DNA of 63,105 nucleotides, filler included, from Collodictyon triciliatum (Eukaryota), in NCBI GenBank assembly GCA_043381765.1. It is 7 parts of 7 records of this genome, joined end to end, with 100 filler letters (N's around TTAATTAATTAA, not from the genome) between each part and the next. Parts side by side here need not be neighbours in the genome. Positions count along the whole stretch, not along the records: positions 22,531 to 33,691 come from JBHJMP010002470.1; 6 more parts are not named here. One strand, 5' to 3'. Each line of letters opens with the position of its first letter. Positions within the stretch are counted from its first letter, which is position 1. This document shows, piece after piece, positions 98 to 52,590 of the stretch. The translations under genes were made by a program, and so were the position numbers. The notes beneath the pieces were generated by a model. The model saw only the letters and a list, made by a program, of their open reading frames with translations, made no database searches and had not been told where the DNA came from.

Positions 98-205
98 TAA
101 AATGAATAGGAACAAAAACATAATTCGAGACGATTTGACTAGTATAAGCACAATCGTCGATCAGTTATATTATTATGATAATTGGATCTACACATAGGAA
201 TTCTC

Positions 206-3200
206 ATGGGAATTAAAAAAACAACATTTGTCTTCATCAGTGAGTTTTAAATTATCGATTAATTTCTCATCTATACATTTAATTAAAAAAGTTTTTTTAT
301 CTACCCAAATAGTCTCGCTTGTCGTGACCATCTATTTTGGTGGGGCGAGAGGAGACGATTTAGAAAGTACACTGATTATCAGTGGAGGCAGTGCAAGAAT
401 CTTGGGCGTCGCGGTCTCAAAAGATGGAACCAAGTTCGCCTCGGTTGGTGAAGACCAGACTGTCAAAGTCTGGAGTACTGCCCAAGGTTTACTTTTAAGC
501 TCCTTTTCTGGGCATTCAAAAAAAGTCTTTAGTGTTTGCTTCTCGCCAGATGGCTTTAAACTGATTTCAGGAAGCGAAGATGGGACCATTAAAACATGGG
601 ATTTAGTCACTTCAAAGTTTTTTGCCTCTATGACAGGCCACACTGGGGATGTTCTAACTGTCGCAGTGAGCCCTGATGGGACCAAAATTATATCAGGAGG
701 TTCTGATACAACTATCAAAGTATGGGATTTAGTCGACAGAATCTTCATCCGAACGTTAATTAGTCATACTTCCGCAGTGAACTCAGTGGCAGTTACACCA
801 AATGGGTTAAATATAGTTTCGGGAAGTTCTGATAACAAAGTCAAATTATGGAATATATCAGATGGAAAATTAATGATAACATATAATGGTCATTCTTCGA
901 AAGTGAATTCTGTTGTGATTACCCCAAATGGTCAGAATGTTATATCTGGGGGAGATGACTTGACGATAAGAATATGGGACCTGTTATCAGGAAATCAATT
1001 GAAGATAATCACGCAAACTGGGGCGATTAAGACGGTCTCAGTATCCTCAGATGGAGAAATGATTGCCTCTGGAGGTTCTACCAGATCCATTTCATATTGG
1101 AAATTTTCAGACGGGTCTTTTTTACAGAGACGGTCAGGACACACAGCGACAATTACATGTGTGACTTTTTTCCCCACCGGATATAGTTTGGTTTCTGGAT
1201 CTATGGACACAACCATTAAGGTCTGGGAATATAGCAGCAACACACCGGTGCTGAACGTCCTAAATCCTGTTGGCGGAGCTTCTTCAATAGCAGTTAGTTC
1301 TGATGGTTTGATTCTTATCTCTGGAGGGAGTGATCAAGTCGTAAAAATGTGGAATATATCTGATAATTCAATTTTGCGAACTTTCACTGGACACACAAAT
1401 ACTGTGAATTCTGTCTGCTTCAACTCAAACTCGTCTACAATAGTATCAGGAAGTGAAGATAGAACAATTAAAATCTGGAGCGTTTCGGATGAATCTTTAA
1501 GGATTACTTTGACAGGCCACTCTGGTGGTGTGAGAGCTGTAGCTGTTTCTCGAGATGGTTCATTTGTCGCGTCAGGAAGTTCTGACAATACCACAAAATT
1601 ATGGGATATGTCCAACGGAAAATTACTGCGAACATTTATGGGCCATGCATCTGGTGTAAATTCAGTCGCTTTAAATTTCGACTCTTCCAAAATAATATCA
1701 GGAAGTGATGACAATACCATAAAAATATGGAATACCAATGATGCGTCTTTGAATGTGACTATCCAGGCTCATGATAATGGGGTCAAAAGCGTTTCTATCT
1801 CATTAGATGAATCTATGATCGTTTCAGGAGGCGGGGACAAAGCCATCAGAATGTGGAAATACCCTGAAGGAGCCCTTATAGTCACACTTGGAGGCCATAA
1901 AGGTGTCGTTAATAGCATTCATATTTCGGGTGATGGGTCGAAGCTTATTTCTGGGAGCAGTGACGGAGCCATTAATTTATGGAGCACACAAAAAAAAAGG
2001 CTAATAAATACTTTGTCGGGGCATGGCCAAACAGTCAACAGTGTCTCATTTATTAATGGCACCAGTAAATTTGCAACTGGAAGCAGTGACTTTACCATAA
2101 AGATATGGAGATATCCTTCCTCGACCCTGATGATGACTATCCCTGGAGACAATTCAGGATTTACAAGCATCGCTATCGCACCAGAATTATATTATGTCGT
2201 TTCAGGAGATTACAGAGGTTATATAAGTGTATGGGATCTATCAAATGGTGAGCTAATTAGAACTATAAATGCACACAGGATTGATAATACTATTATTATT
2301 GCGAGGCATTTGACATTGACCAGAGATTCCAAAAAAATCATATCTGGCGGTTCTGACCAATTAATTAAGATTATAGACTTGGCAACTGGGAATATATTGC
2401 TCTCATTAAGAGGGCACACAAGTACAGTTCTTGTGACGGCAGTTACTCCAGATAGCGCTAAAGTTATTTCAGGGGGTCAAGATTCAACTATTAGAGTTTG
2501 GGATGCGATAAACGGAATTTTAATACATACCATCAGCGAAATGCCATTTTGGATTTACAGCATCTCAGTTACACCGATGGGAACAGAATTCATTACAGGG
2601 AGCGATGAAAGTATTTTGAAATTGTGGAACATATACGATGCGTCTTTAGTTAGGATTTTCACAGGCCAAAATGGAAAAGGTATGGCTACTGCAATAAGTC
2701 CATGTGGAGAATATGTTCTCTCTGGTAATAACCTAGGCTCAATCACCCTTTGGAATATAACATCTGCTGTAAAGCTGATGGAATTTTATGAACATATTTA
2801 CTCTGTGAGTAGTATTTCAATTACACATAATGGGACACGATTCATATCAGGCAGCATAGATCGATCAATTAAAACATGGGATTTTAAAAATAGTACTTCC
2901 ATTAAAACACTTACTGGACATTCAGGTGCAGTGAATAGTGTTTCATCAATTATTGGAGGAACTTTAATTGCCTCTGGAAGTGATGATAATACCATTAAAA
3001 TATGGGACGTTGGGATACTCTGCGAGATAGGATATTTTTACGACACGATGAAAAATTCGTGCAGCCGTTGTCCTCCTGGTAGATATGCAAACTCGAAAGA
3101 CCAATATAGCTGTTCTCTGTGCCCAAAAGGTACATATAATCCACAGAATACATCAATCAGCATAAATAGTTGCCTAGAATGTGATCCAGGATACTATAAT

Positions 3201-6200
3201 CCTGAAGAAGGGCAAGCGATTTGCATTAAGTGTAAGAGTGGAACATACAATAATCTTTTTGGACAGATACAATGTTTAGAATGCGATGAAGGATATTATA
3301 GCAATACTGGTGACCAATACTGTACAGGTTGTCCAGTTGGAACTAAAAATCCTAATAAAAAAGGAGCAACAATTACGTCATGCTCGAAGTGCTCAAAAGG
3401 TAGCTATAACAGTAGAATAGCAAGCGATAGTTGTCATGATTGTCCACGTGGATTTTACTCTGATTCAATGGGGAGTGAATTTTGCTCTTCCTGTCAGCAG
3501 GGTTCTTTTGCTAACAGAACAGGAATGTATTATTGCATATTATGTCCTATTGGGACCTATAGCGACAATATAGGGGCGAGTAATTTTACTGAATGTCTTG
3601 ATTGCCCAGAGGGCCAATTTTCATCAGAACCAGGAATGGCTTCTTGCTTAATGTGCACTCCTGGAAAATACAATGATGAGAAAAGAAGAATTTCCTGCAA
3701 AAAGTGTATGGACGGAACTTATAATCCTAATTATGGATCCAAAAACAGTTCTGATTGTATTAAATGTCCCAAAGGAACATACGGCATACCGTCTAACACG
3801 GATTGTAACTTCTGCCCAGCCGGTACTTACAACAATATGACAGGCTCTTCGAGCATAGCAGATTGTATTAAATGCTCAAACGGAAGCTTCAGCGCTGAAA
3901 GAAGCTCATCATGCATCGAGTGCTCACCTGGATTCTATCAAGAGGTAAATGCTACCAAAGACCAAGACTCATGCTACGCGTGTCCAAAAGGGACATACAA
4001 TCTTAACTCCGGCTCATACGGAAGCGAGTCGTGCGTAAGCTGTCCAGAAGGGACTTACAATGACAAGAATGGACAGCCTTCGTGTGTGTCATGTCCAGCC
4101 GGTACTTACAACAATATGACGCGCTCATCAAGCGTATTATCTTGCATCAAATGCTCAAACGGAAGCTTCAGCACCGAGAGCAGCTCATCATGCATCGAGT
4201 GCTCACCTGGATTCTATCAAGAGGTTAATGCTACCAAAGACCAAGACTCATGCTACGCGTGTCCAAAAGGGACATACAATCTTAAATCCGGCTCATACGG
4301 AAGCGAGTCGTGCGTAAGCTGTCCAGAAGGGACTTACAATGACAAGAATGGACAGCCTTCGTGTGTGTCATGTCCAGCCGGTACATACAACAATATGACA
4401 GACTCATCAAGCATATCAGATTGTATCAAGTGTGCTATTGGTAGTTATAGCTCAGAGAGGAGCCCACTTTGCAATAAATGCCCGAATCGCTCTACCACTA
4501 AGAATGAAACTTCTTTATCAATACATGACTGTATTTGTTTAGATACATACATACTTTTCAATGGTGAATGTACTTGTAAACCTGGAAATTTTGAAGACGA
4601 TGGCAGATGTGAGGATTGTGTCAAAGGTACTTACAAAAATACATATGACACAAACTTCTGTATATCATGTGGAGATAAATTTACTACAAAAAATTTTGGT
4701 TCGGTGAATTCATCTAGCTGCATCTGTAAGGATGGATTTGATTTTATAAATTCTACTTGCGAATGCAAACCAGGGTGGTTTGAAAAAGAAAAAAACTGTT
4801 ATGAATGTCCTGCAAATTACTTTAAAGAATTTTATAATCAAACTGCATGCTTGCAATGTCCTTACAATTCAATAACAAATTCTACCGGCTCAACATCAAT
4901 ACACAATTGCACGTGTAATGGAAACACATATCTAGACTTGAAGAGTAAAATATGCAAAGTATGTCCGAATGGATTCATTTGTGATGGAAGTAGCAATCTA
5001 GCTGTCTCCCCAGGATATTGGAAAGTGAGCGACCGAGATGGGGTCATCAAAGCTGAAAAATGTCTCAATGAACGTGCTTGCAAAGGAGGAAACAACACTT
5101 GTGCGCAGGGTTATACAGGAGTTTTGTGCGGTGTTTGTCAAATCGGGTATGGTGAAGTTGGCTCTATGTGTGTGGAATGCCCTAAAACTGGAGCCAGTGG
5201 ATTTCTTGTATTTTTGAGCATTATTATTCCGATGACTTTCGCAATGTTCATGATAGAACAGTCTCGAAAGCCTAAAACAGGGCACATTCAAATACTTAAG
5301 ACTCTCGCCACCCACTTCCAGATACTCTCTTACATCGCGAATTTCGATGTTAATTGGGACTACACCATGATTTCGATATTGAAGATTCCTGCCTCCTTTT
5401 CCTTTTCTTTGTCGACAGACAGTTATCATTACCAATGCCAGTTCCAGATATCTATTTACGAAAAGGTTTTGTTGTCTATGTTAACACCAGCAATCCTGGC
5501 AGGCCTTATTATTTTAATTGTCGCAGTGAAGACTGCTTGGAAATTGATTAGCGAAGAAAAAGCTTTCCATGAACTAAGATTTTCAGAGCTTCGACAAGAG
5601 TTCGTCTACTCCGTCTTGGTCATGTTATTTTTTGTGCATCCAACCATCACAGCAAACGCTGCATCTATATTCCGCTGCCATGAAATTGGAGGGGAGCGCT
5701 ACGTGATGGAAAACTTAGAGATTAGCTGTGAAGATCCGACTTACATAAGTTATCGAAATGCCACGTTTTGCTTCATTATCATTTATAGTTTGATAGCCCC
5801 TATGCTGTTGTTAGGGAGGATTGTGTACAAAAGAAACTCTCTAAAGTATCCCAATTCAAATACATATATATTGCTGAGGTTTTTAGTGGAGGGATATACG
5901 GAAAAATGTAACTTTTGGGAAGTTATTCTCATGATGCAAAAGCTTTTGATTGTAATCGTGAGTGTCTTTTTTTCATCTTCCCTCCAGATTTACTTTGGGC
6001 TGTGGATTATGTTTGTGATGATTGCATCCACCATCTACTTCAAACCGTTCATATCGAGTACGCTCAAGAACGCCCAATTACAGTCTTTGATAGTTCTTTA
6101 CTTCACTCTCATGCTCAGCCTTCTTTTCCGATACAGCGACATTGCCCCACTGACAAAAAATATCCTTATCTTTTTGGTGGGATTAATCAACGCGCTAGTT

Positions 6201-6398
6201 TGCGCCTGGTTTTTGTCCATAGCCGGACCAGAGTTTATACGAATGATATTATCCAAAGCCTTTTCTTTTCTTGGTGCAGTGAGGAGGAAGATTCTATGGA
6301 ACCCAGTCTCTAATCGCATCAGAATCCGCTTGTCCCGCATAATCGAAGACAGGGAGATGCAGGAGATATCCGGGCAAGTGCAAATGGTGACTCTCTAA
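206..6398 (+). CDS. Receptor-like membrane protein: signal peptide + 21 WD40 repeats + Cys-rich (GCC2/GCC3/ephrin-receptor-like) repeats + ~9-TM C-terminal domain; exons 206-239, 313-6398
   Basis: ATG at 206; intron 240-312 (GTGAGT...TAG) joins in frame to the long ORF, giving MGIKKTTFVFIISLVVTIYFGGARG (signal-like). 21 GH...WD-type repeats to ~3010; CxxCPxGTY repeats ~3020-5190; hydrophobic helices with FWE-x5-QK and KPF motifs ~5190-6280. Confidence 0.9.
3815..4400 (+). repeat. Near-identical intragenic tandem duplication, 279-nt (93-aa) unit
   Basis: ccagccggtac(t/a)tacaacaatatgac recurs at ~3815, ~4094 and ~4373; protein block CIECSPGFYQEVNATKDQDSCYACPKGTYNL...CVSCPAGTYNNMT occurs twice almost verbatim. 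Confidence 0.92.
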
Positions 6399-22430: not shown

Positions 22431-22530
22431 NNNNNNNNNNNNNNNNNNNNNNNNNNNNNNNNNNNNNNNNNNNNTTAATTAATTAANNNNNNNNNNNNNN
22501 NNNNNNNNNNNNNNNNNNNNNNNNNNNNNN
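22431..22530. other. Artificial contig linker
   Basis: N44-TTAATTAATTAA-N44. Confidence 0.97.
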
Positions 22531-23238
22531 TTATCTGAACTCTGGTCACACAAGGTCTCTGTGCTGAATCCTGACTGGTCTCGTGTGAGGGAAATCGGGA
22601 GCGAGGGAAGTAATATTGGCCAACTCAAATACCCGAGAGGTGTTGCTATTCACCATGACGGGACAATAGTGATTGTAGACAATGACAATAATAGAATTTG
22701 CATCTACTCCCAAACTTATGAGCTGCTCCACACACTCGGGTCGTCCGGTATAGGCGATGGACAGTTTCAAGAGCCGTACAACGCTGTTTTCGACACAGAT
22801 GGCTTTTTTTATGTCACAGACCGAGACAACCACCGAATTCAAAAGTTTTTCAAGGATGGAACTTTTGTGCACTCGTGGGATGTTTTTTGTCCTGACTCTA
22901 GAGTGAAATGGAAACCTGAAGGCATCGCCCTGTCCACCGACCAAACGTTGTACATATCTTCGAGAAAACGTGGCTTGGTGCTTGTCTACTCGCGCACAGG
23001 AGAGTTCATCCGTAGAATCCCCGTGGAGGCATCAGGCGACCAGTACTGTGATATATGCCTTACTTCAGGGGACGGTTTCGCCATTAGTGACTGCGAGAAA
23101 AATATAGTTCGCTTTTATGATGCTCACGGCACTTTCCTGAACTCAATCAGCGTAAATTCTCCGGTTGGGATGGCGTTTGGATTCAACGACGAGTTCTATG
23201 TTATATCCAAAGATTCAAACGAAGTCGTCGTTTATTAG
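22531..23238 (+). CDS. NHL-repeat beta-propeller protein, 5'-truncated by contig end
   Basis: GSEGSNIGQLKYPRGVAI...VDNDNNRI; GSSGIGDGQFQEPYNAVFD...VTDRDNHRIQKF; WKPEGIA: typical NHL repeats. Confidence 0.88.
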   Translation, partial: LSELWSHKVSVLNPDWSRVREIGSEGSNIGQLKYPRGVAIHHDGTIVIVDNDNNRICIYSQTYELLHTLGSSGIGDGQFQEPYNAVFDTDGFFYVTDRDNHRIQKFFKDGTFVHSWDVFCPDSRVKWKPEGIALSTDQTLYISSRKRGLVLVYSRTGEFIRRIPVEASGDQYCDICLTSGDGFAISDCEKNIVRFYDAHGTFLNSISVNSPVGMAFGFNDEFYVISKDSNEVVVY

Positions 23239-23781: not shown

Positions 23782-25425
23782 ATGCGCAATCTACTCATCG
23801 GCCTTATTGAGTGGAGGCTTCGTGTGCGGCCGCATCTAAAAGACAAACTCGGCACATTGGCAAACGAGCAGCGTCCTAATGGTACAGTCCAGTTCATTTC
23901 ATCATAAAACACACACATAAAAAAACTCGAATAATAGCGCTTCTTTTCTTCTTTTTTGAATTTTTTTGTCATGGCAAAAAGAAAAGGAGCTCAGAAAGTC
24001 TTTCTAACGCACTATTTTCGGTGAATAAAAGAAATGAATCCTTACCACTTTGCTTTTGAGATGCTGTACTTATCAGGACAATCAAGCTTTTTGCATCAAG
24101 CATAAAATAATTATGTGAAACACACACGTTTCCTGCAGTTTTATTCATCGGCTGCAGCGACAGTCGTGTTGCAGTCAACGTCTTCGCATCCACTCGCCCA
24201 GGCGATACGTATGTGATTCGGAATGTTGGGAATCTTGTTCCTCCAAGCAAGGACTCTGCGCTTCATCAGGATTTGGAAAAGGGCTTTGTCGGCTCTGCTG
24301 TTGAGTTTGGAATACACTCGCTCGATGTAAAGAACATTATCGTATGCGGGCACTCTGGATGCGGTGCACTCCATGCGCTGACAAAATTGAATGGATTGCA
24401 CCAAGACGGCTTTGATGCAGAGAAGACCAAAGGTTATCTTTTAAGATGAAAAGCATCGAACGAAAAACACTATGATTTACCGTTCGAAAATATTCTCTTT
24501 TCTTTTTTGGAAAGGGAAATAGAAGAACAAGTTTCTAATTCTTAACAGGATGTTGCTGATATTTTTTCTTTTCCTTTATTCGATTCAAAGTGACGTTGCT
24601 AATATATTAAAGTATGGTTCAATAGAACACTTGCATGCAAAAGAGGCGAATAAAAATCAATATCCCGGATTGAATCAGCATGTCTGTAACCACTCGCTTG
24701 GGTCTTTTCCTGTGATGCAAGGGATGCCGTCAATGACATCGTGGCTGAGGTGGGGTCNNNNNNNNNNNNNNNNNNNNNNNNNNNNNNNNNNNNNNNNNNN
24801 NNNNNNNNNNNNNNNNNNNNNNNNNNNNNNNNNNNNNNNNNNNNNNNNNNNNNNNNNNNNNNNNNNNNNNNNNNNNNNNNNNNNNNNNNNNNNNNNNNNN
24901 NNNNNNNNNNNNNNNNNNNNNNNNNNNNNNNNNNNNNNNNNNNNNNNNNNNNNNNNNNNNNNNNNNNNNNNNNNNNNNNNNNNNNNNNNNNNNNNNNNNN
25001 NNNNNNNNNNNNNNNNNNNNNNNNNNNNNNNNNNNNNNNNNNNNNNNNNNNNNNNNNNNNNNNNNNNNNNNNNNNNNNNNNNNNNNNNNNNNNNNNNNNN
25101 NNNNNNNNNNNNNNNNNNNNNNNNNNNNNNNNNNNNNNNNNNNNNNNNNNNNNNNNNNNNNNNNNNNNNNNNNNNNNNNNNNNNNNNNNNNNNNNNNNNN
25201 NNNNNNNNNNNNNNNNNNNNNNNNNNNNNNNNNNNNNNNNNNNNNNNNNNNNNNNNNNNNNNNNNNNNNNNNNNNNNNNNNNNNNNNAACTGCTTCCGAT
25301 TAATTGATTTGAGTGAGGCCAACCGCATTATGGAAGCCATGAATGAACCGCCCATCAATAGAGACCTGATGGATGCATTGCGGGGGAATCTAAGTGATTA
25401 CGAGGCACTTCTGGACACAGCCTAG
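23782..25425 (+). CDS. Beta-class carbonic anhydrase (spliced; middle lost in N gap 24758-25287)
   Basis: MRNLLIGL...EQRPN|VLFIGCSDSRVAVNVFASTRPGDTYVIRNVGNLVPP...AVEFGI..LDVKNIIVCGHSGCGA: CxDxR and HxxC Zn-ligand motifs. Third exon GMPSMTSWLRWG; assignment of the post-gap stretch as the C-terminus is inferred. Confidence 0.92.
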
Positions 25426-25875: not shown

Positions 25876-26671
25876 TTATTTTGCCGAGCCTTCCTTTAGT
25901 TTCATGGCCTCTTTGCGTGTCGCGTCCTGCACCACCTCCGTATCAACCTGTACAGATACATCGGAAGTCCCATGATTCATATGTGCAATAATACCAAAGG
26001 ATATATCTAAACTATGTAGAGCGATAGCGAATAGCATAATGTGTTGATGCAAACAAGTCATTTGGCAAACCTCCTTCGCTTGGATCTGGACGTAGCGAAT
26101 GACCGATCCACGAACGAAGCAGCTTTTGACGGCGATCTTTCGAGAGGGAGAGAAACATCAGAACATGTGAAACAAAACCATCCACAGAAAACAGGAAACA
26201 GGCGGCCGTGGCCGTGAAATGAAGGGCAGATAACTCGAAATGGCTTGTTTGCAAAGGAAAGGCTGAGTCTGGGGACTGTGTGTCGATGACAATAAACGAG
26301 CAAAGAGAATGCCAGAGGAAAAGGTGGCGGATAGAAAGAAAAACACGCAAACACTTTATGGCGGTTGGGAGGCCTGGAGCAAATCAACAAACCATGTGGG
26401 GGTATTTTTCCTCCTCAAGGACTCTGATGTTGCTGAGTCGCAGATTCAGGAACTGATCGACCGACTGAAGTGTCCCGCTAATGCTCATGTCATTTTTGAG
26501 ATCCACAACGATTTCCTTGCCAATCAGCGACTTGAAGAACGAAAAAAAGACCTATGCAAACAACAGGCTCTCAGTTGCGCTGGCAGAGTGCCGATGTGCA
26601 AGAGTATCACCGCGCGGATCAGGCCGCACCCGAGGACACACGCAATAATAGGATCAAAGTGAGCCTACCAT
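25876..26671 (-). CDS. LSM2: U6 snRNA-associated Sm-like protein LSm2 (4 exons; first coding exon is ATG only)
   Basis: M|VFFSFFKSLIGKEIVVDLKNDMSISGTLQSVDQFLNLRL...EKYPHM|IAVKSCFVRGSVIRYVQI..E|VDTEVVQDATRKEA*; all junctions GT-AG, phase 0. Confidence 0.96.
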
Positions 26672-27221
26672 CTTATCTTGCGTGCTTTTGCTGCTGTCTT
26701 CCTTTGGAACTCCTCCTCCTGTTTTTCTACGAGTCTCCTGTCTCCTTTGACGATCGTTGTTCAGGCTTTGGCTAATCTGTTGAGTGATTTGATTTGTTCT
26801 GATCTGATCTGATTTGATTGTGCGACCCCGACTTGATTTGGTATGAATGAACCGGACTTATTTTCTATTCCTCATTTTATGTCAGCCGCAAGAAGTCGAC
26901 TACAGGCCTCAGGATTGCAAGTAACATCCAGGAATCCTATAATCCATGATTCTGGTGTGCTCCCTGGCCAGTGAAAATAGACGTATAGACATTGGCTGCG
27001 AGTCATGAACGAAAGGTATTCCATCATAACCACAGGAGACAAAATCAAGACACAATGTAACAAAACAAAAATAACACCTCATCGATGCGGCTCGATTAAT
27101 CCCATAAATCTCTGCATCATTTATTTGAGCATTTTATGTGAGGATGACATGTGAAAATCCTTGATAAAACACCCAAAATCGCTATCGCCGGCAGATTCGC
27201 CTTCCTCATTGGATAGTCTGT

Positions 27222-30200
27222 TCACAACACATAGTAAGCAGCAGCGGATGTGTCTGGGATACCAGCAACCAGCCCATCAGTTGTCATGGAGAAGGCTTCT
27301 CCAAACGAGTTAGAAGAAGGGACAGTCGAGGGAGGATAGAATGTGTGAATGTAAGAGTATGTAAGCGTGTCATCGTATGATTCGTAAAGTTGGATGCGTC
27401 GAAATCTATCTGTTCCGTCCCACACTGCCATTCTGTTGGTCTGAGGAGGCGCAGAAATGTGTTTTCCGAAGGACTGGGACGGATTCGCCATTGAATCGTA
27501 AGACGTAATTGTTTGTTTCCAGATGACATCAGAGGACACTCGTATATCATATACAAAGACTGCTCCGGTGCTGTCCTTTGCCGACACAAACCCAGGGTCA
27601 GATATCAGCAGAGAATTGCGAACGAGGGCGAGACCAGCCCCGAGTGTCCTTGACTTACTGGGCTGCAGCAGAGTAATGTATCCTGTGATTCCAGTGTGGG
27701 AGTCAAACGAGAACAAATACACGGATGCCTGTGTATTGACATCGCTTGGGGAATCAGATACAGCTATGTACGCCATCGATAAAGCCACACTGACACCAAA
27801 CTTATCTCGGTCTCTGATATTGGGCGACTGAACAATCATGGGTGTCGAAGCAAAGCCCTCTTTTTTCCAGAGCCTTATACCTAAGTCGAAGAGATAAACA
27901 GCACCACCAGACACTCGATCAATCACTGCACCAGGAGCAGAGACGGCAGCCCAGTTGGAGAAAATCCCTATGGCATGGCCAAAGCCACCGTATACTGGGT
28001 CTGCTGTATCTTGCGTTGGTGGAAGTAGCATCGTAAGGATGTCCCACGACTCGCCAGACGGACTAACACGGATGGCATATACTGCTGCTGTTTTACCGCC
28101 ATTTGATATTATCGAATCGCAGCTGACAAGAAGGATATCATCGTCCAGAATCAATCGCTCGCCACATCGTGCATCTGCTGGGTTGGATGCGCCTAGGCCA
28201 GATACGGCTCCCACGGCTTTAATTCCGTCTTTGCCGATGCTCCACAGAGTGACCTGGCCGCCGTTTCGGTCCTGAGGTTCTCCAATGGCAATCTTTTCGC
28301 CGTGAATTCCAACAGAAGTTCCAAAGGCACTTGCACTGCCGCTGCTCGTGGGCGACTTGATGACAGACTCGTCTTTTTTATATGCAAAAATATAAATTTA
28401 TCAGTTAAATATTAAAATATTATGGGGAAAACTAGAATATGGTATACATGTTCCAATATGTCTCTAATTTCATGCATGAAAACGGGGCAAAAACGAGATG
28501 TAATCATTAATATTTACGGTTTATATCCACCATCTCCTCGCAGTATTGTCCTTCAAACCCGTCATTGCATTTGCAGGTGCCAAGCCCAGTCACTTGTCCG
28601 CGGTTGTTGCATATGGATGGTGAGCTGGTGTAGCTGCAATCGCTCCCCTAAAGTCGAATTAGTCATAGAAAAGGAAGAGGACATGCCATTCATTTACGAT
28701 TTGGTATCCATGTGTTCTGATGCCATAGCTTTTTAATGAAAAAACGTACGAAATATCGCGGAGCACAAACGCACTGGCCGTTACGGTCACAAGAACCACC
28801 ATTCTTACAATCCCCATTAACTGTGCAAGAAAGCCTGACAAAAGCCGGAAGGAATCCTAAAGCTTTTGCATTCTTACCAGCACACCCCGGCGCGCTGATA
28901 GGAGAGACACACTGATTTTCCATGAAGCATTTTCTTGTTTGGTCGTACTTCATTCCTACATTGTGCGTGGCATATATTCCCACAACTTTTCTTGATGATG
29001 TAGATAGGATTGCAGAGCCAGTGGCCTGGCCATAGATGGCCGAATCCTGTTCGGAATCATTTCAATAAACATAAATAGGTTCGTAGAGGAAAAAAATGTG
29101 ACATATGCTGCTCGTGTCATTGATGGAGTAAAGCGTAGGAATTACCGAAAAATAGAAGCTGGTGGAAGTGCGTCGATTCGCATTAGGATAGTAAACATAT
29201 CCCTTGGTTACATATTTTCGCGGTAAGCCACTTGGATGACCGATGATGGCGATGTTTTCTTGCGAAGGGAGCTATTCATTTGAAGAAAATAAGTGACTTT
29301 TCTTGAACACTGATTTTTTTTCATCAAGAAAAAACGAAAAAAAATACAACAGAGATAAGAATACTTTGATTATGAAATGTATTTTGAAGGCCTACTGTAA
29401 CAGACGAAATAGAAACAGGCGTGTAACCAACAACAGCTCGATCTAGCTCAACAATTGCATGGCCTTCGGGTGTTATTTGATGGCTGGCAACTCTATATAC
29501 CTGCGTTGGATGAAATTTGAGTACTTATGGGTAGTCTATTATCACAGGGGAAAATCTCGTTCAAATGAAAAGAATTTTATATCGTATGAATACGTCAGAA
29601 GTGCTGAATGTGATTTTGGGCCTATCTACTCCAACCATAACGAATCCAAATAATATTCGAAGGTCTGATATTTGAATTGAAGCGCTAACACTGCAAATTT
29701 GAATCGAGTTAGGGATCATATGAGAGCGGCCAATATTTCATTCATCTCAACAAACCAGCTTGCTGAAGTTGCGACTTGCGAGCTAGATACCAAGAATCCG
29801 GAGCAAATGCCCATAGCAGGCTTTTGTTGATTTGAGTGTGTAATTTTTTCATTAGAATTCTAGAAATAGTTGTAGAATATGGATTTTCAATATTCAGTTT
29901 CTTTTTTTTTTTATCATGATGGATAAAGATTCAACCACCAACCTCATTGGCAAATGAATCTTCAGTACAAACACTGTGAGAGGCAAATGTTTTCGAAATT
30001 CTCAAAGAGAAAGAAGCGTCTGAATTTTGTATCAACTAGGCCAAGTATTTTAATCACAATAACAAAAAAAAAATGTATGTTAATATTTGAACGGCAACAC
30101 TTCCCTACGTTGGATAGTATCTTTTGTTTAATCAAGTAAAATCCTCACATCATCCTTGTGAATGAACATAACTGTCGATGCACCTTGCTGCTTCCATTCA

Positions 30201-31709
30201 GATGATACCTCGTATTCTTGTATAGGTCGCTCATTGACTTGATTTCGAGAATTGACTATCGCTTCCTCCACTAAAACGCGTATTTCCTTAGAGAGTTCAT
30301 TGGTATCTCCTGTAATCTGATCAAAAGTGGCATAAACAATCCAGAACTGCAGGCGACGATCAATTAAAGGGTAGAACCCGAGATATCCAGGGCTTCCATG
30401 AATACCGTTTTTGTTGCATGCCTGGTCCGGTCTTTGATCAAGACAAATAATCCACTGACCAAGACCATAGTGCCACAGGATGACACCACCAACAGGCGGG
30501 GCTGTATTGTCCGTCTCTATTATCTTTACGCTCTCTGCCGTTACCACGTTGTTCATGAAATAGTTGTACAGAATCTTGCTGTACCAATGGCCGGATGTTA
30601 CGATGTCGCCAGCCGGAAACGGGTTAGGCTCAGACTCGAAAAAGCACGGTTCTCCTATCTTCTGAGGCCTAATAATCTCGTTCTCAAAAATCTGGCTGAA
30701 TGAAGTTGCGTTTATTGCCAAAATAGCCATGTAACCAGCAACGTGCATGTGGTTACTGTTGTAAACGAAATTAGCCCCTGGTATGACGTTTGGAACGGCA
30801 TTTAATTCGTACAACGAACGCACGCACTCTTCCATGGTTATGTCAGAGGGATACTATTGTTTAGAGGGTAAAAAAATACTAATAAGCGCAGGGCCAGTTA
30901 TTTTCTCGAGAGCGCAGATGGTGCAGTTTAATTCCAGCTTCTTATTCTTTTTCAGAATGTTAATGGCATTGAATATTGCTTAGCGGGGAATAAAGAAAAA
31001 CACTATAATTATTCTCCAAAAAAAGAACTCAGTTGCATACCATGACGCAGCTGTCTTCAATATCGAGACCAGATGTCATTGCAAGGAGTTGTTGGATGGT
31101 AATGTGAGAGCGCCAGTCTCTTGGGTCAGTAGTCCAGAACGGGATGTACATTCCTGGCGTATCATTCAAACTCATTTCGCCTCGCTCGATAATCCTCAAA
31201 AGAATCATGGCTGTTATCCATTTAGTCGCGCTCATTATCTGGCCATAACTGTCACGGTTGAAGACACCTTAAGAAATCATATTTTTCGCGGCTATTAGCT
31301 GTCTTCTCCTTTTTTTTTTCTTTTCCTTTTTTGAAAAAATCAAGAATAGAGCAGAACCACGCACAGGAAGAGAGAGGAAAGGAAAACAATTAAATAAGAG
31401 CACTTTTCTTGTCAAGGAATCTTTATGGAAATAAAATAAATGTGGTGAGTAAATAAAGGTACTTGAACGAGAGACGATAAAAAAAAAAACTACTCTTCTA
31501 CACATCCAGTTACCTTTGTCATGGACGAATAATTCTCCGCGGTGATCACCAATGATGACGGAAACGTCACGGATCGATCGGCTGTTTTCGATGCCAAACC
31601 TTACTTTCGCCCACGAGTCAATGACATTTTGTCCAAAGGCAGAGTTAAACGGTAAAAGTATCGACAAAGCCACTGCTGTAAACACGAGCCAAAGGATCGC
31701 CGGCCTCAT
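27222..31709 (-). CDS. Secreted multidomain protein: serine beta-lactamase/PBP-like + catalytically dead trypsin-like + 2xEGF + FG-GAP-like propeller (~1063 aa, 11 exons)
   Basis: Exons 31709-31514, 31267-31041, 30853-30149, 30035-29943, 29820-29756, 29690-29594, 29500-29396, 29271-29146, 29046-28750, 28647-28518, 28372-27222; all GT-AG and phase-compatible, total 3192 nt. Motifs: signal peptide; SATK, LLAMTSG, FVYNSN, SPGYLGFYPLID; CSGFLV..VATSASC, GHAIVELDR, IIGHPSGLPRK, YGQATGSA; two EGF Cys patterns; FGTSVGI, FGHAIGI, FGVSVAL, GAVYLF repeats. Confidence 0.85.
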
Positions 31710-46445: not shown

Positions 46446-48226
46446 GCTTGATGGGTGTGGAATGAAACCCTGCTCTGTGGCGGACTCGGAAAGCTCGGTT
46501 CCCGCTTTGCTTGCTTGTCCGTTACGAGGCTACTTGACTTCTTTCGCATTTTCCCAGTGTCTTAGAGCAAGTACAATTCATACGTGCAATACACTTTGCA
46601 ACGAGTGTCCAGTTCTTTGGTCTCACGCTCATTAGTTGCGTTCATTTGTGTATACAGTTATAATGATATGCTTGATTTTATATTAGTATTGGTTTTTGTC
46701 GCAAGTGAGTGCTAAAATTATGGTATACAGATATTTTCCGCATTATAATATGTCAACAACCCATATTATAATCAAATATCAATTTATCAATAAGAATAGA
46801 TTTCTGGGTTTACACAAGTTGCCCTACAACCATGTTTCAGTCTTTGCGCTGGGTGCGTTATCCTAGGAAATGAGGTGTTAACCGATCCAGGATGATTGCT
46901 AGTTGAAAACTAAACCCAATGCCCCGCCTGGTGACCCACGTGGTCATCAGGCAATTTATGGAGGCCGTCATGGCTAATAAGAATCAGAGAAAATCGTAAT
47001 CGAGAGTCATCAGAGTGTGACATTAACGCCGCGATGCGTCCACAGCGCCCAATACTCCACGCACCATTCCACGATGCTGATAATCCTAATGTGGAATTCG
47101 TAGTGCTGGCGTCAACACCAAATTTGGTCAAGCGCGGCCCAATCTGGGCGACTCCCCCTTTCCTATAAGGAGAACACAGGGCGGAGCACACACCAGCTCA
47201 ACATTATTCCAAGTCCAGATTTGCCAGGAACCACCAAACATCAACAAATTCATGGCGGTTTTATTCCATTGCGCGTGCGAGTTTGCGAATTCGATAAAGA
47301 AAAAGAATAAAACTTCCTGAACGGTTTGTATTCCTTTGTTAATTTTTTTCCTTCATTGTATGTGGTTGCTTCACCAATTTTTCGGTGCGTTGTCCAAGAT
47401 AGGAAAAAAGAGAATGTCGTTTGTACCTATACCGCTTCTCTTTCATATTGCGCTGCAGACCACCAGACAAACAACCAAACAAACGATCGGCAAACAAACC
47501 AGCGTTATGGCGACAACCACCACAGCCATCTAATTTGTCCTGTGCCGAGGGTGTCCTCAAAGCCAAGAGCAGAATAGCGAAGCATTATAAACGGGGTGCG
47601 TAGCGGGCTGGTCTTCTGTCCAAGACATACGTGTCTCGTTTTCTCGCGCAATACTGCTGGCGCACGATTCAGCACAATGAAACACAACAAACACGGCAAA
47701 CGCTTTCTTGCACCCACATACATTTGTTCGAATATGAAGCAAAAATAGTGCCATACAATAAAACGGCATTATTTTCAAACGCGTTTTGCCGGCCTTTTTA
47801 GCCAATTTAATTCCCTTTTTGCTTCCCAAGCCCCTTATGTTTTTTTTTTTAATTTCTTTCTCTTTCCTCTATTTTCTTTCACATCCTCTTCAAATGTACA
47901 TATCCGCTGACTCAAACGAACACAAGACGAAGCAGATAAAACCAACACCAAAGGTTCAAACGGGATAAAACAAACGACAACAACAGCAAATATAAAGAAA
48001 ACGATGCGCTCATGTGTTGTTTATCTGCTGAGCAGCAGCACCACCGCCCAAACAGCACACAAACCCATCAAAAGAAACGTTTTGCGATCAAGACATCCAT
48101 CCATCAACCTATCCAACCATTTCTCCGCTCTTTTTCTCGCAAACAAGGGCAAAGGAGCAGACAGACAGACAGACAGACAGACAAGTAAGCACATCGACCA
48201 GTCGCCTCAGCCAGCCACTCCCCCTG

Positions 48227-51270: not shown

Positions 51271-52590
51271 TTAATCACTAAACGCAACAATAAACCATCC
51301 TTCTTCAAGGCGGATTTGGACCACAACCAATAGTGAAAAATTGCAAGCTGCAGGGTCTTTGGTAGGATTGCTAATCTTACTTTCCACAGCGTACATGCGC
51401 ATCAATTCTTCCTTTCTCTTTCGGAGCAGAATGTTCTCGATGTCTTGGGGCGACGGGAGAGGGACGTGTGAGACGAATCGGTCTGGGGCAATCTCATCCG
51501 CAACATACTTTATCCCAGAAACGCGCTCCTTTTCGCGTTGTTCAGCATCCCACTTCTCATTAGCAGCTTTAATAGCTATCATCTTGTCAAGTTAAAAGGA
51601 AGAAAAGAGAAAGCAACATACTTCTAGCTATAGGGAAACTTTCACGCTACATATATTACCCCATCCTATGTATTGATTTAAACGATCTTGTCCCGTAACT
51701 GAGTCGACGCAACCTTGATGAAAAGAAGAATTGTATGTACCTTCGGCCTCTGCTGCGGCTTCCAACGGTGCAAGAACACCGTCATCGTCGTCTCGATATC
51801 CGTAGTAGTCTGCGTCAACGTGTTTGTAAAGCTCAAATCTTGTGCGCTTGATCTTTGGATTATCTGATTTTTTTTTCAATTAGTGAAATAAGTTATGCTC
51901 CGGGATCTACAATTATTATCAGCATCTGACTTTTGGTTTCAGATCGAAAACAAATACAAAGATATTGTTTTTTGATATTAATTATTTGTCTGCGCAAAGC
52001 TCTGGACAAATACTTGCCTTCGACTTGGAAAAGTTCTTTCACACCAGGAAGATCCTTTGCAGCACCAAAATACCTATTAAACAATTAGTCAAAAACTAAC
52101 CATCACAAGAAAGAAAAAAAATCGACCCTGGAATTATCATAATTGATACAGTATTACAACACAAAATACGGAATTCAATATAAATCAATAATTAAAGAAA
52201 TCACCGATATCCGAAACTCTTTCCGGGCACCAAAGAGCCTTCATCCTCTGAAATCTTTGGAGCAGAGAGCTAAATTGACAGACAGAGGTAGAAATCCAGT
52301 CAACAGTAACCATGAATACGATATCATGCAGCTCGCTGGACGATGAATCAGGGTATCTAAGGAAAGAAAGTGGAAAAGAATATGAGACATAGCAAACCAT
52401 GTAATTTGCACCGCCGAGTTCCACAATGCGTCTCTCCCAATGGCCTTTTTCCCTAAGGAGTTTGTTGATTTCATCGTTGAGGTCGCGGATTTTATGCTCT
52501 CCAAGGCCCTCTAGTCGTGATTTCATTCAATTTGGGTGTGTGAGCAATTAAATTAGCAAAACTACCAACTGGAGATATTTAAGCGAGGGA

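Follow-up and report, generated by a model that had tools for sequence, protein, structure and literature searches.

The secreted enzyme GPLD1, a glycosylphosphatidylinositol-specific phospholipase D, carries an FG-GAP propeller at its C-terminus. The FG-GAP propellers of integrins bind ligands (PMC3192720), and a Streptomyces protein with the architecture trypsin-(FG-GAP)3, NP_825221.1, is listed in PMC2605481. Class C beta-lactamases and DD-peptidases are defined by the motifs SxxK, YxN and (K/H)(T/S)G (PMC12903863; PMC12073871). For family VIII esterases, motif III is described as not strictly conserved save for its Gly (PMC12770603). Here, we describe a gene of the protist Collodictyon triciliatum (assembly GCA_043381765.1) that is predicted to join a hydrolase domain of the beta-lactamase type (PF00144/S12) to a dead trypsin-like domain, two EGF-type repeats and an FG-GAP propeller. 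The gene lies on the minus strand at 27222..31709 of the window, which is the whole stretch of 63,105 nucleotides (nt) analysed, made of seven parts of this assembly joined end to end.

Joining 11 exons from 31709 to 27222 gives 3192 nt and 1063 amino acids (aa) with one terminal stop (Table 1). All ten introns are GT-AG; they are 65-246 nt long and have a GC content of 0.25-0.38, mostly below that of the exons. The exon set was built by hand, and its total length and two named junctions agree with those of an initial annotation of this DNA, which had proposed ten GT-AG introns and a single 3192-nt frame. The product has one hydrophobic stretch, at its N-terminus, and no later stretch of membrane-spanning strength. 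When the exons were searched singly against Pfam, exon 2 matched the Beta-lactamase family (45.2 bits against a cut-off of 27, E 9e-12) and exon 11 matched FG-GAP_2 (5e-10). EGF-type matches on exons 9-10 were below cut-off, and exons 3-8 taken singly gave no Pfam match. No second copy of the gene was found by tblastn within the window.

The gene has a colinear homologue in Diphylleia rotans. With exon 3 as query, a full HMMER search of 1.84 billion representatives returned 300 matches, and second among the 150 listed was a 1083-aa Diphylleia protein, EP00002_P037586 (EukProt; P0002). This is a transcriptome product that bears its assembler name alone. The alignment spans residues 9-1053 of our model with 361 identities in 1086 columns (33%, 595 bits), and identities are found in all 11 exons, from 6/32 to 38/76. 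Since the chain has been kept intact at 33% identity, it is under selection. Twenty-two of 23 cysteines are common to both proteins, which fits an oxidising compartment. Above the Pfam cut-offs, the Diphylleia protein matches Beta-lactamase (90.8 bits), Trypsin_2 (36.8 against 27.6), EGF_2, EGF_Teneurin and FG-GAP_2. Beyond residue 400, only three isoforms of the Diphylleia gene matched among the 166 proteins compared. One of these isoforms leaves the common sequence exactly at the place of intron 9. We read this as a retained intron, and the intron position would then be common to both organisms.

The homologue also served to assess the splice sites. At junctions 1-9, the chosen donor and acceptor gave the best score against Diphylleia among 4-15 frame-keeping alternatives each. 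This includes 30149/30035, where the initial annotation had the lactamase-like frame splice onward into a protease-like region. Junction 10 ranked third of eight frame-keeping alternatives, yet it was seen spliced, as had been predicted, in one of three sequencing runs called X1, X2 and X3. X1 consists of contigs only; that it derives from RNA is a guess, as it is for X2 and X3. An X1 contig spanning 28561-27113 has intron 10 removed (joint 28372/28518) and carries a poly(A) tail seven bases past AATAAA, so the 3' end of the gene is expressed. Run X2 gave one 33-base match to an intron, and run X3 matched only the neighbouring gene. Together, the open frame, the homologue and the spliced contig establish one real intron-rich gene that encodes the whole domain chain.

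The N-terminal domain was compared over 137 domain rows, drawn from the 150 listed matches plus our model and each covering at least 230 positions of a profile that included two window exons. S78 and K81 are each present in 123 of the 137 rows (13 have gaps) and Y172 is present in all of them. H176, at Y+4, is found in 126 and G297 in 135. S78, K81 and Y172 are kept in both protists, in agreement with the SxxK and Tyr of a serine beta-lactamase fold noted initially. Motif II reads Y-N-S here and Y-G-D in Diphylleia; an Asn at Y+2, as in YxN, occurs in 5 of the 137 rows and in neither protist. Motif III reads S-P-G here and S-G-G in Diphylleia, and the pattern [KHR][TS]G is found in 0/137 rows. 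The register of motif III was taken from the near-invariant Gly and from a gapless alignment to the WGG of the family VIII esterase EstCE1, which is only local and scores a weak 7.8 bits. When AmpC is aligned by MAFFT, this register moves by one (G-S-P here, H-S-G in Diphylleia), and HHalign alignments with AmpC and AmpH end before motif III. The NCBIfam models matched by the Diphylleia protein and by exon 2 score about 16-24 bits against cut-offs of 266-865. Exon 2 alone gave 17.2 bits against 266 for AmpH; the whole Diphylleia protein gave 16.3 against 865 for blaPDC, the only class C model that it matched. The initial annotation had suggested action on bacterial cell wall or antibiotics. 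Because motifs II and III are unlike those of class C beta-lactamases, DD-peptidases and MlrB, and the NCBIfam scores are far below their cut-offs, that suggestion is weakened.

A structure model was made for the Diphylleia homologue, over its first 650 aa, in place of the window protein. Its mean predicted local distance difference test score (pLDDT) is 68.8 and its predicted template modelling score is 0.55; in the 16-row alignment behind it, the last helix of the hydrolase rows is misplaced. The top structure match was 5tgf, an uncharacterised protein of Bacteroides dorei (Z 31.6, root-mean-square deviation 2.9, 299 aligned). Next came an amide hydrolase and esterases (Z 27.9-29.0), and the R61 DD-peptidase and a class C enzyme gave Z 25.2-25.3. 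The match lists were filled by the N-terminal domain, and it is for this domain that the fold comparison speaks. Judged by profile, by SxxK and Tyr and by the modelled fold of the homologue, the domain belongs to the PF00144/S12 fold.

The hydrolase subfamily is widespread in bacteria, including Myxococcota, Bdellovibrionota, Chloroflexi, Proteobacteria and others; 555 of 604 pattern matches were confirmed and 80 were kept. A stand-alone member with a signal-like N-terminus is found in a marine eukaryote transcriptome (P0071), and it clusters with the two fusions with support of 92 (FastTree). Other arrangements were seen as well. P0003, a 752-aa protein encoded on a 515-kb contig, carries two domains of this subfamily in tandem. 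P0048 and P0114 are members joined to alpha/beta-hydrolase domains of the esterase type, in keeping with a role that involves esters.

The second domain was identified with a profile built from 68 bacterial open reading frames (ORFs) alone, which matches aa 358-598 of the spliced model (138 bits, E 7e-44). HMM searches thus put both parts in the families that had been proposed, beta-lactamase and trypsin. Exon 3 ends at aa 376, and the trypsin match starts 19 residues earlier. One exon therefore carries parts of both the hydrolase and the protease-like domain, and a gene lying separately downstream would miss the first segment of its domain. The frame of exon 3 alone scores -2.6 bits on this profile, and so the shared-exon argument rests on the spliced alignment. 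The catalytic triad is lost in both protists (here/Diphylleia: His to S/E, Asp to G/G, Ser to T/T), as are the oxyanion Gly and the S1 Asp. Among the bacterial rows, 67/68 keep His-Asp-Ser and the remaining row is cut short. Six cysteines of the domain are kept at about 33% identity between the two protists. By profile, the domain has a trypsin-like (S1) fold; with S428, G474, T547 and Q545 at the key positions, it is predicted not to be an active S1 protease. That the two protists have the same residue at two triad positions suggests that the domain was inactivated once, early on, and then retained.

Relatives of this domain are bacterial serine proteases. They were matched in 48/121 genomes of Bdellovibrio's phylum and 20/121 of that of Polyangiaceae, at no more than 10 per genome, and these counts include a few matches to the hydrolase part. 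Trypsins are reported to be expanded in Bdellovibrio (PMC2605481). FastTree trees join the two protist sequences (96, 99) on long branches and name no donor; the sampling for the trypsin tree was two phyla and two rhizobial plasmids.

By sequence pattern, both proteins continue with two EGF-type repeats and seven FG-GAP-type blades, the blade number of integrin alpha; single-sequence folding of the 1083-aa homologue reached a pLDDT of 32. No calcium-loop motif, membrane helix or hydrophobic tail was found in the C-terminal half, and the chain ends with blade 7. The predicted protein thus lacks the calcium loops, legs, membrane helix and GFFKR tail of integrin alpha. The propeller matched 1/81 genomes and had no significant match to any solved chain.

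In the protein, metagenome and genome searches made, the full domain chain was found here and in Diphylleia rotans only. Word-index searches gave 0/675 candidates for exon 3 against longer proteins, only the query itself among 4341 for Diphylleia aa 30-680, and 0/468 for the Diphylleia trypsin part against shorter proteins. Such relatives do exist, which shows that the sensitivity of the word-index search is low. Metagenome scans gave 0/33 stretches in one case and 2/167 in another, both hydrolase-only. Across 155 loci (1544 ORFs; flanks of 1.5-4 kb), 89 had a hydrolase, 66 had a protease and none had both. Lineage-specific domain shuffling is common in protists. No description of this architecture was found in open-access text, in line with the initial annotation; a mention in the supplementary domain tables of papers on CRuMs genomes is conceivable. 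We conclude that this is a real, conserved and apparently undescribed chain made of known domain families, and the initial picture of a single fused gene of secreted type, with a dead trypsin-like domain, an EGF pair, an FG-GAP propeller and no anchor, is supported.

How might such a protein work? We give an even chance to a soluble ester/amide hydrolase of the secretory pathway or food vacuole that has a single active centre plus three modules for binding or spacing and acts on prey molecules. The protein would enter the secretory pathway and reach the cell surface, the outside or the food vacuole of this phagotrophic protist, a relative of Diphylleia judging by the best match and the intron place in common. 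Diphyllatea are described as engulfing prey in food vacuoles and as eating Microcystis (10.1101/199125). The only working centre would be the N-terminal S12-fold serine hydrolase, in which S78 may attack while K81 and Y172 relay protons, so that an acyl-enzyme forms and is then hydrolysed. The likeliest targets, by analogy with family VIII esterases and amidases, would be small molecules derived from prey, cut at an ester or amide bond; D-Ala-D-Ala of peptidoglycan and penicillins would not be expected. The trypsin-like domain, probably derived from a bacterial secreted-protease family, would be catalytically dead and kept folded. Together with the EGF pair as a spacer and the seven-blade propeller, it may hold the enzyme on a partner, a surface or the substrate.

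Several observations weigh against this proposal. We infer the location from the N-terminal hydrophobic segment alone. The Foldseek search ranked the DL-peptidase Lip3 first, with near-tied E-values (Lip3 Z 27.4). Since Z-scores for the whole family differ by only a few units and Foldseek results are near-ties, structure does not fix the substrate. The model shows no fixed packing of the hydrolase against the trypsin-like domain, and residues 318-354 have a pLDDT below 50. We found no member of the hydrolase subfamily with an assayed activity, and the nearest solved structure is itself uncharacterised. On the RNA side, X1 has zero cover over 28562-31369, which leaves the 30149/30035 joint and exons 2-9 without RNA here, and the sole spliced X1 contig starts inside exon 10. 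This contig also has a 1-base insertion in a homopolymer at 27860 that shifts the propeller frame at codon 852; it is either an amplification slip or artefact, or a broken allele. The contig differs from the window at nine places in exon 11, of which five are silent against 2.6 expected (P 0.085, not significant).

The main rival, which we consider rather unlikely, is that the hydrolase is a D-stereospecific peptidase or amidase acting on prey cell-wall fragments or on non-ribosomal peptides such as cyanobacterial toxins, with the other domains capturing peptides. The fold and the Ser-Lys-Tyr centre are those of D-aminopeptidase, MlrB and Lip3 (PMC11070527, PMC12903863), and the Foldseek rank of Lip3 and a diet of Microcystis would suit such an enzyme. 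Axenic D. rotans is reported to degrade microcystins (PMC9142107, citing a 2013 paper), and the near-invariant His at Y+4 could replace the missing basic residue. However, MlrB requires S77, K80, Y171, N173 and H307, a change of N173 or H307 abolishes its activity, and it is described as cutting linearised, not cyclic, microcystin (PMC11070527). By motif comparison (the MlrB sequence was not aligned), N173 and H307 are replaced by S174 (D in Diphylleia) and S295. The motif III Lys that Lip3 is reported to use (PMC12903863) likewise has no counterpart. A related but quite improbable idea is a grazer counter-defence, in which the dead trypsin is a decoy that binds inhibitory or toxic prey peptides, as from Microcystis, and passes them to a tethered hydrolase able to cleave ester or D-amino-acid bonds; inhibitors of trypsin and chymotrypsin are among the products of Microcystis. 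If the protein had this role, it could be the eukaryotic enzyme, built out of two bacterial-type domains, that accounts for the so far unexplained breakdown of microcystins reported for Diphylleia. Two things speak against the idea: the S1 Asp is lost, and the residues that MlrB needs are missing. A beta-lactamase that shields the protist or its food-vacuole flora from antibiotics is very improbable. To our knowledge, eukaryotes lack the drug target of the antibiotic. The Pfam and fold family agree with such an enzyme, and a cephalothin complex of a family VIII esterase is among the solved structures (4ivk), but the domain has neither KTG nor YxN and reaches 16 bits against a cut-off of 865 for the class C model. 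Lip3, with class C motifs, is still reported to have no beta-lactamase activity (PMC12903863). It is also unlikely that the protein is mainly an adhesin, for prey recognition or a surface coat, whose hydrolase modifies or releases the bound surface. About two-thirds of the chain is non-catalytic, and these parts are 33%, 45% and 34% identical to Diphylleia compared with 40% for the enzyme, so they are about as conserved; the ligand binding of integrin propellers also fits. Against an adhesin stand the missing membrane helix, hydrophobic tail and calcium-loop motif, and the protein fails the membrane-docked definition given for integrin alpha (10.1101/2020.04.29.069435).

A different question is whether the locus also yields shorter products, for which we see a small chance. 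These could be a propeller-only form starting in exon 10, and hydrolase-only or hydrolase plus pseudoprotease forms made by intron retention or early polyadenylation. The 28561 end of the X1 contig bears adapter-like sequence, presumably of the template-switch type, and the same adapter is found at plausible 5' ends of the neighbouring gene. This end, with an in-frame ATG after it, may mark a cut-off cDNA or a genuine start inside the gene. ATTAAA is present in introns 2, 3 and 9, and one Diphylleia isoform stops at the intron 9 place. X1 sequence at 31370-31701 runs unspliced from exon 1 into the 5' part of intron 1 and ends near an A-rich tract in the intron; it may be internally primed pre-mRNA or DNA. 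On the other hand, two of the three Diphylleia isoforms are full length, and a propeller-only form would be without a signal peptide. Cut-off cDNAs and retained introns are frequent in such libraries. The exon 10 sequence that lies upstream of 28561, which matches Diphylleia at 12/29 residues, would be non-coding if short forms alone existed; because it is conserved, the full-length mRNA is favoured as the selected product. The extreme form, in which Collodictyon makes no full-length protein, is scarcely believable. Additional short isoforms are compatible with any of the functions considered above, including the soluble ester/amide hydrolase that we prefer.

Diphyllatea branch deeply and prey on cyanobacteria and algae, and little is known of the biochemistry of their digestion. 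Through this chain, a widespread hydrolase subfamily, marked by an unusual S-P-G motif III and an additional His, can be approached for the first time in a multidomain eukaryotic protein. As a defined, predicted secreted hydrolase, it makes the question of prey-peptide breakdown testable with one purified domain. Without a substrate, it is a well-supported architecture and not a new mechanism.

Table 1. Parts of the gene, in window positions, with the residues and evidence that belong to each
Feature	Position	Strand	Content	Evidence or remark
Exon 1	31514..31709	-	Start codon, signal-peptide-like segment (~aa 1-26), first hydrolase part	26/64 identical to Diphylleia; X1 contig covers 31497-31701 unspliced
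Exon 2	31041..31267	-	Motif I S78-A-T-K81 (31232-31221), LLxxTSG segment	Pfam PF00144, E 9e-12
Exon 3	30149..30853	-	Motif II Y172 and H176; motif III S295-P-G297 (30394-30386)	
Exon 3, 3' portion		-	Hydrolase end, short linker, then first 19 residues of trypsin-like domain (from 30205)	
Exon 4	29943..30035	-	N-terminal part of trypsin-like domain, with C399	
Exon 5	29756..29820	-	CSGFLV strand; S428 at catalytic His position	
Exon 6	29594..29690	-	Trypsin-like domain	Weakest exon: 6/32 identical to Diphylleia
Exon 7	29396..29500	-	G474 at catalytic Asp position	
Exon 8	29146..29271	-	IGHPSGLP segment, typical of bacterial protease family	
Exon 9	28750..29046	-	T547 at catalytic Ser, Q545 at oxyanion Gly, A541 at S1 Asp; trypsin-like end (aa 598) and EGF repeat 1	
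Exon 10	28518..28647	-	EGF repeat 2	Adapter-bounded cDNA 5' end inside, at 28561
Exon 11	27222..28372	-	Seven FG-GAP-type blades (from aa 697, 750, 811, 872, 924, 982, 1037), stop codon	Pfam FG-GAP_2
3' untranslated region	27113..27221	-	AATAAA at 27125-27120; poly(A) tail at 27113	

Other features were seen in the window. The neighbouring gene, at 25900-26777 on the minus strand, begins about 340 bases past the poly(A) site of the fusion gene. Its three introns are spliced in X1 and X3, its first coding exon is the ATG alone, and we take it to encode LSm2. A stop-free frame of 2066 codons at 198-6398 (+) encodes a hydrophobic segment at the N-terminal end, numerous WD40-like repeats, a long stalk of cysteine-rich repeats and, towards the C-terminus, several further hydrophobic segments. 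A U4 snRNA gene lies at 46840-46973 (+) and a tRNA gene at 53426-53497 (-). By eye, frames at 22483-23238, 24111-25425 and 52185-52526 resemble an NHL-repeat protein, a beta-class carbonic anhydrase and the splicing factor ISY1, respectively.

Compared with known systems, the Diphylleia product is the closest in domain order, length (1083 and 1063 aa), catalytic and dead residues, seven blades and one intron place. It differs in motif III and in the residues at the protease His, oxyanion Gly and S1 Asp positions. The secreted trypsin-like proteases of Bdellovibrionota, Myxococcota and rhizobial plasmids (e.g., WP_166217251.1) share about 30% identity, the cysteines and IGHPSGLP with the second domain, but nearly all keep the triad that both protist copies have lost along with the oxyanion Gly and S1 Asp. 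The bacterial PF00144 subfamily (nearest solved structure 5tgf) and family VIII (EstB 1ci8, EstCE1 7atl) share SxxK, Tyr, LLxxTSG and an esterase-type spacing after motif III with the first domain. SxxK and the motif spacing agree with family VIII, whereas motif III starts with Ser in place of Trp (by the weak EstCE1 alignment), and an extra His at Y+4 and conserved cysteines are present. Members of the bacterial subfamily are mostly single-domain, and none of those compared bore a trypsin domain. The S12 D-specific peptidases (Streptomyces R61, E. coli AmpH, MlrB, Lip3) and class C AmpC have the same fold and Ser-Lys-Tyr centre, but they have YxN and (K/H)(T/S/G)G, and the present protein has neither. 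Integrin alpha, GPLD1 and NP_825221.1 share the FG-GAP propeller; the present protein differs from them in having no leg domains, membrane helix, GFFKR tail or calcium loops, in its other catalytic domain and in its dead trypsin.

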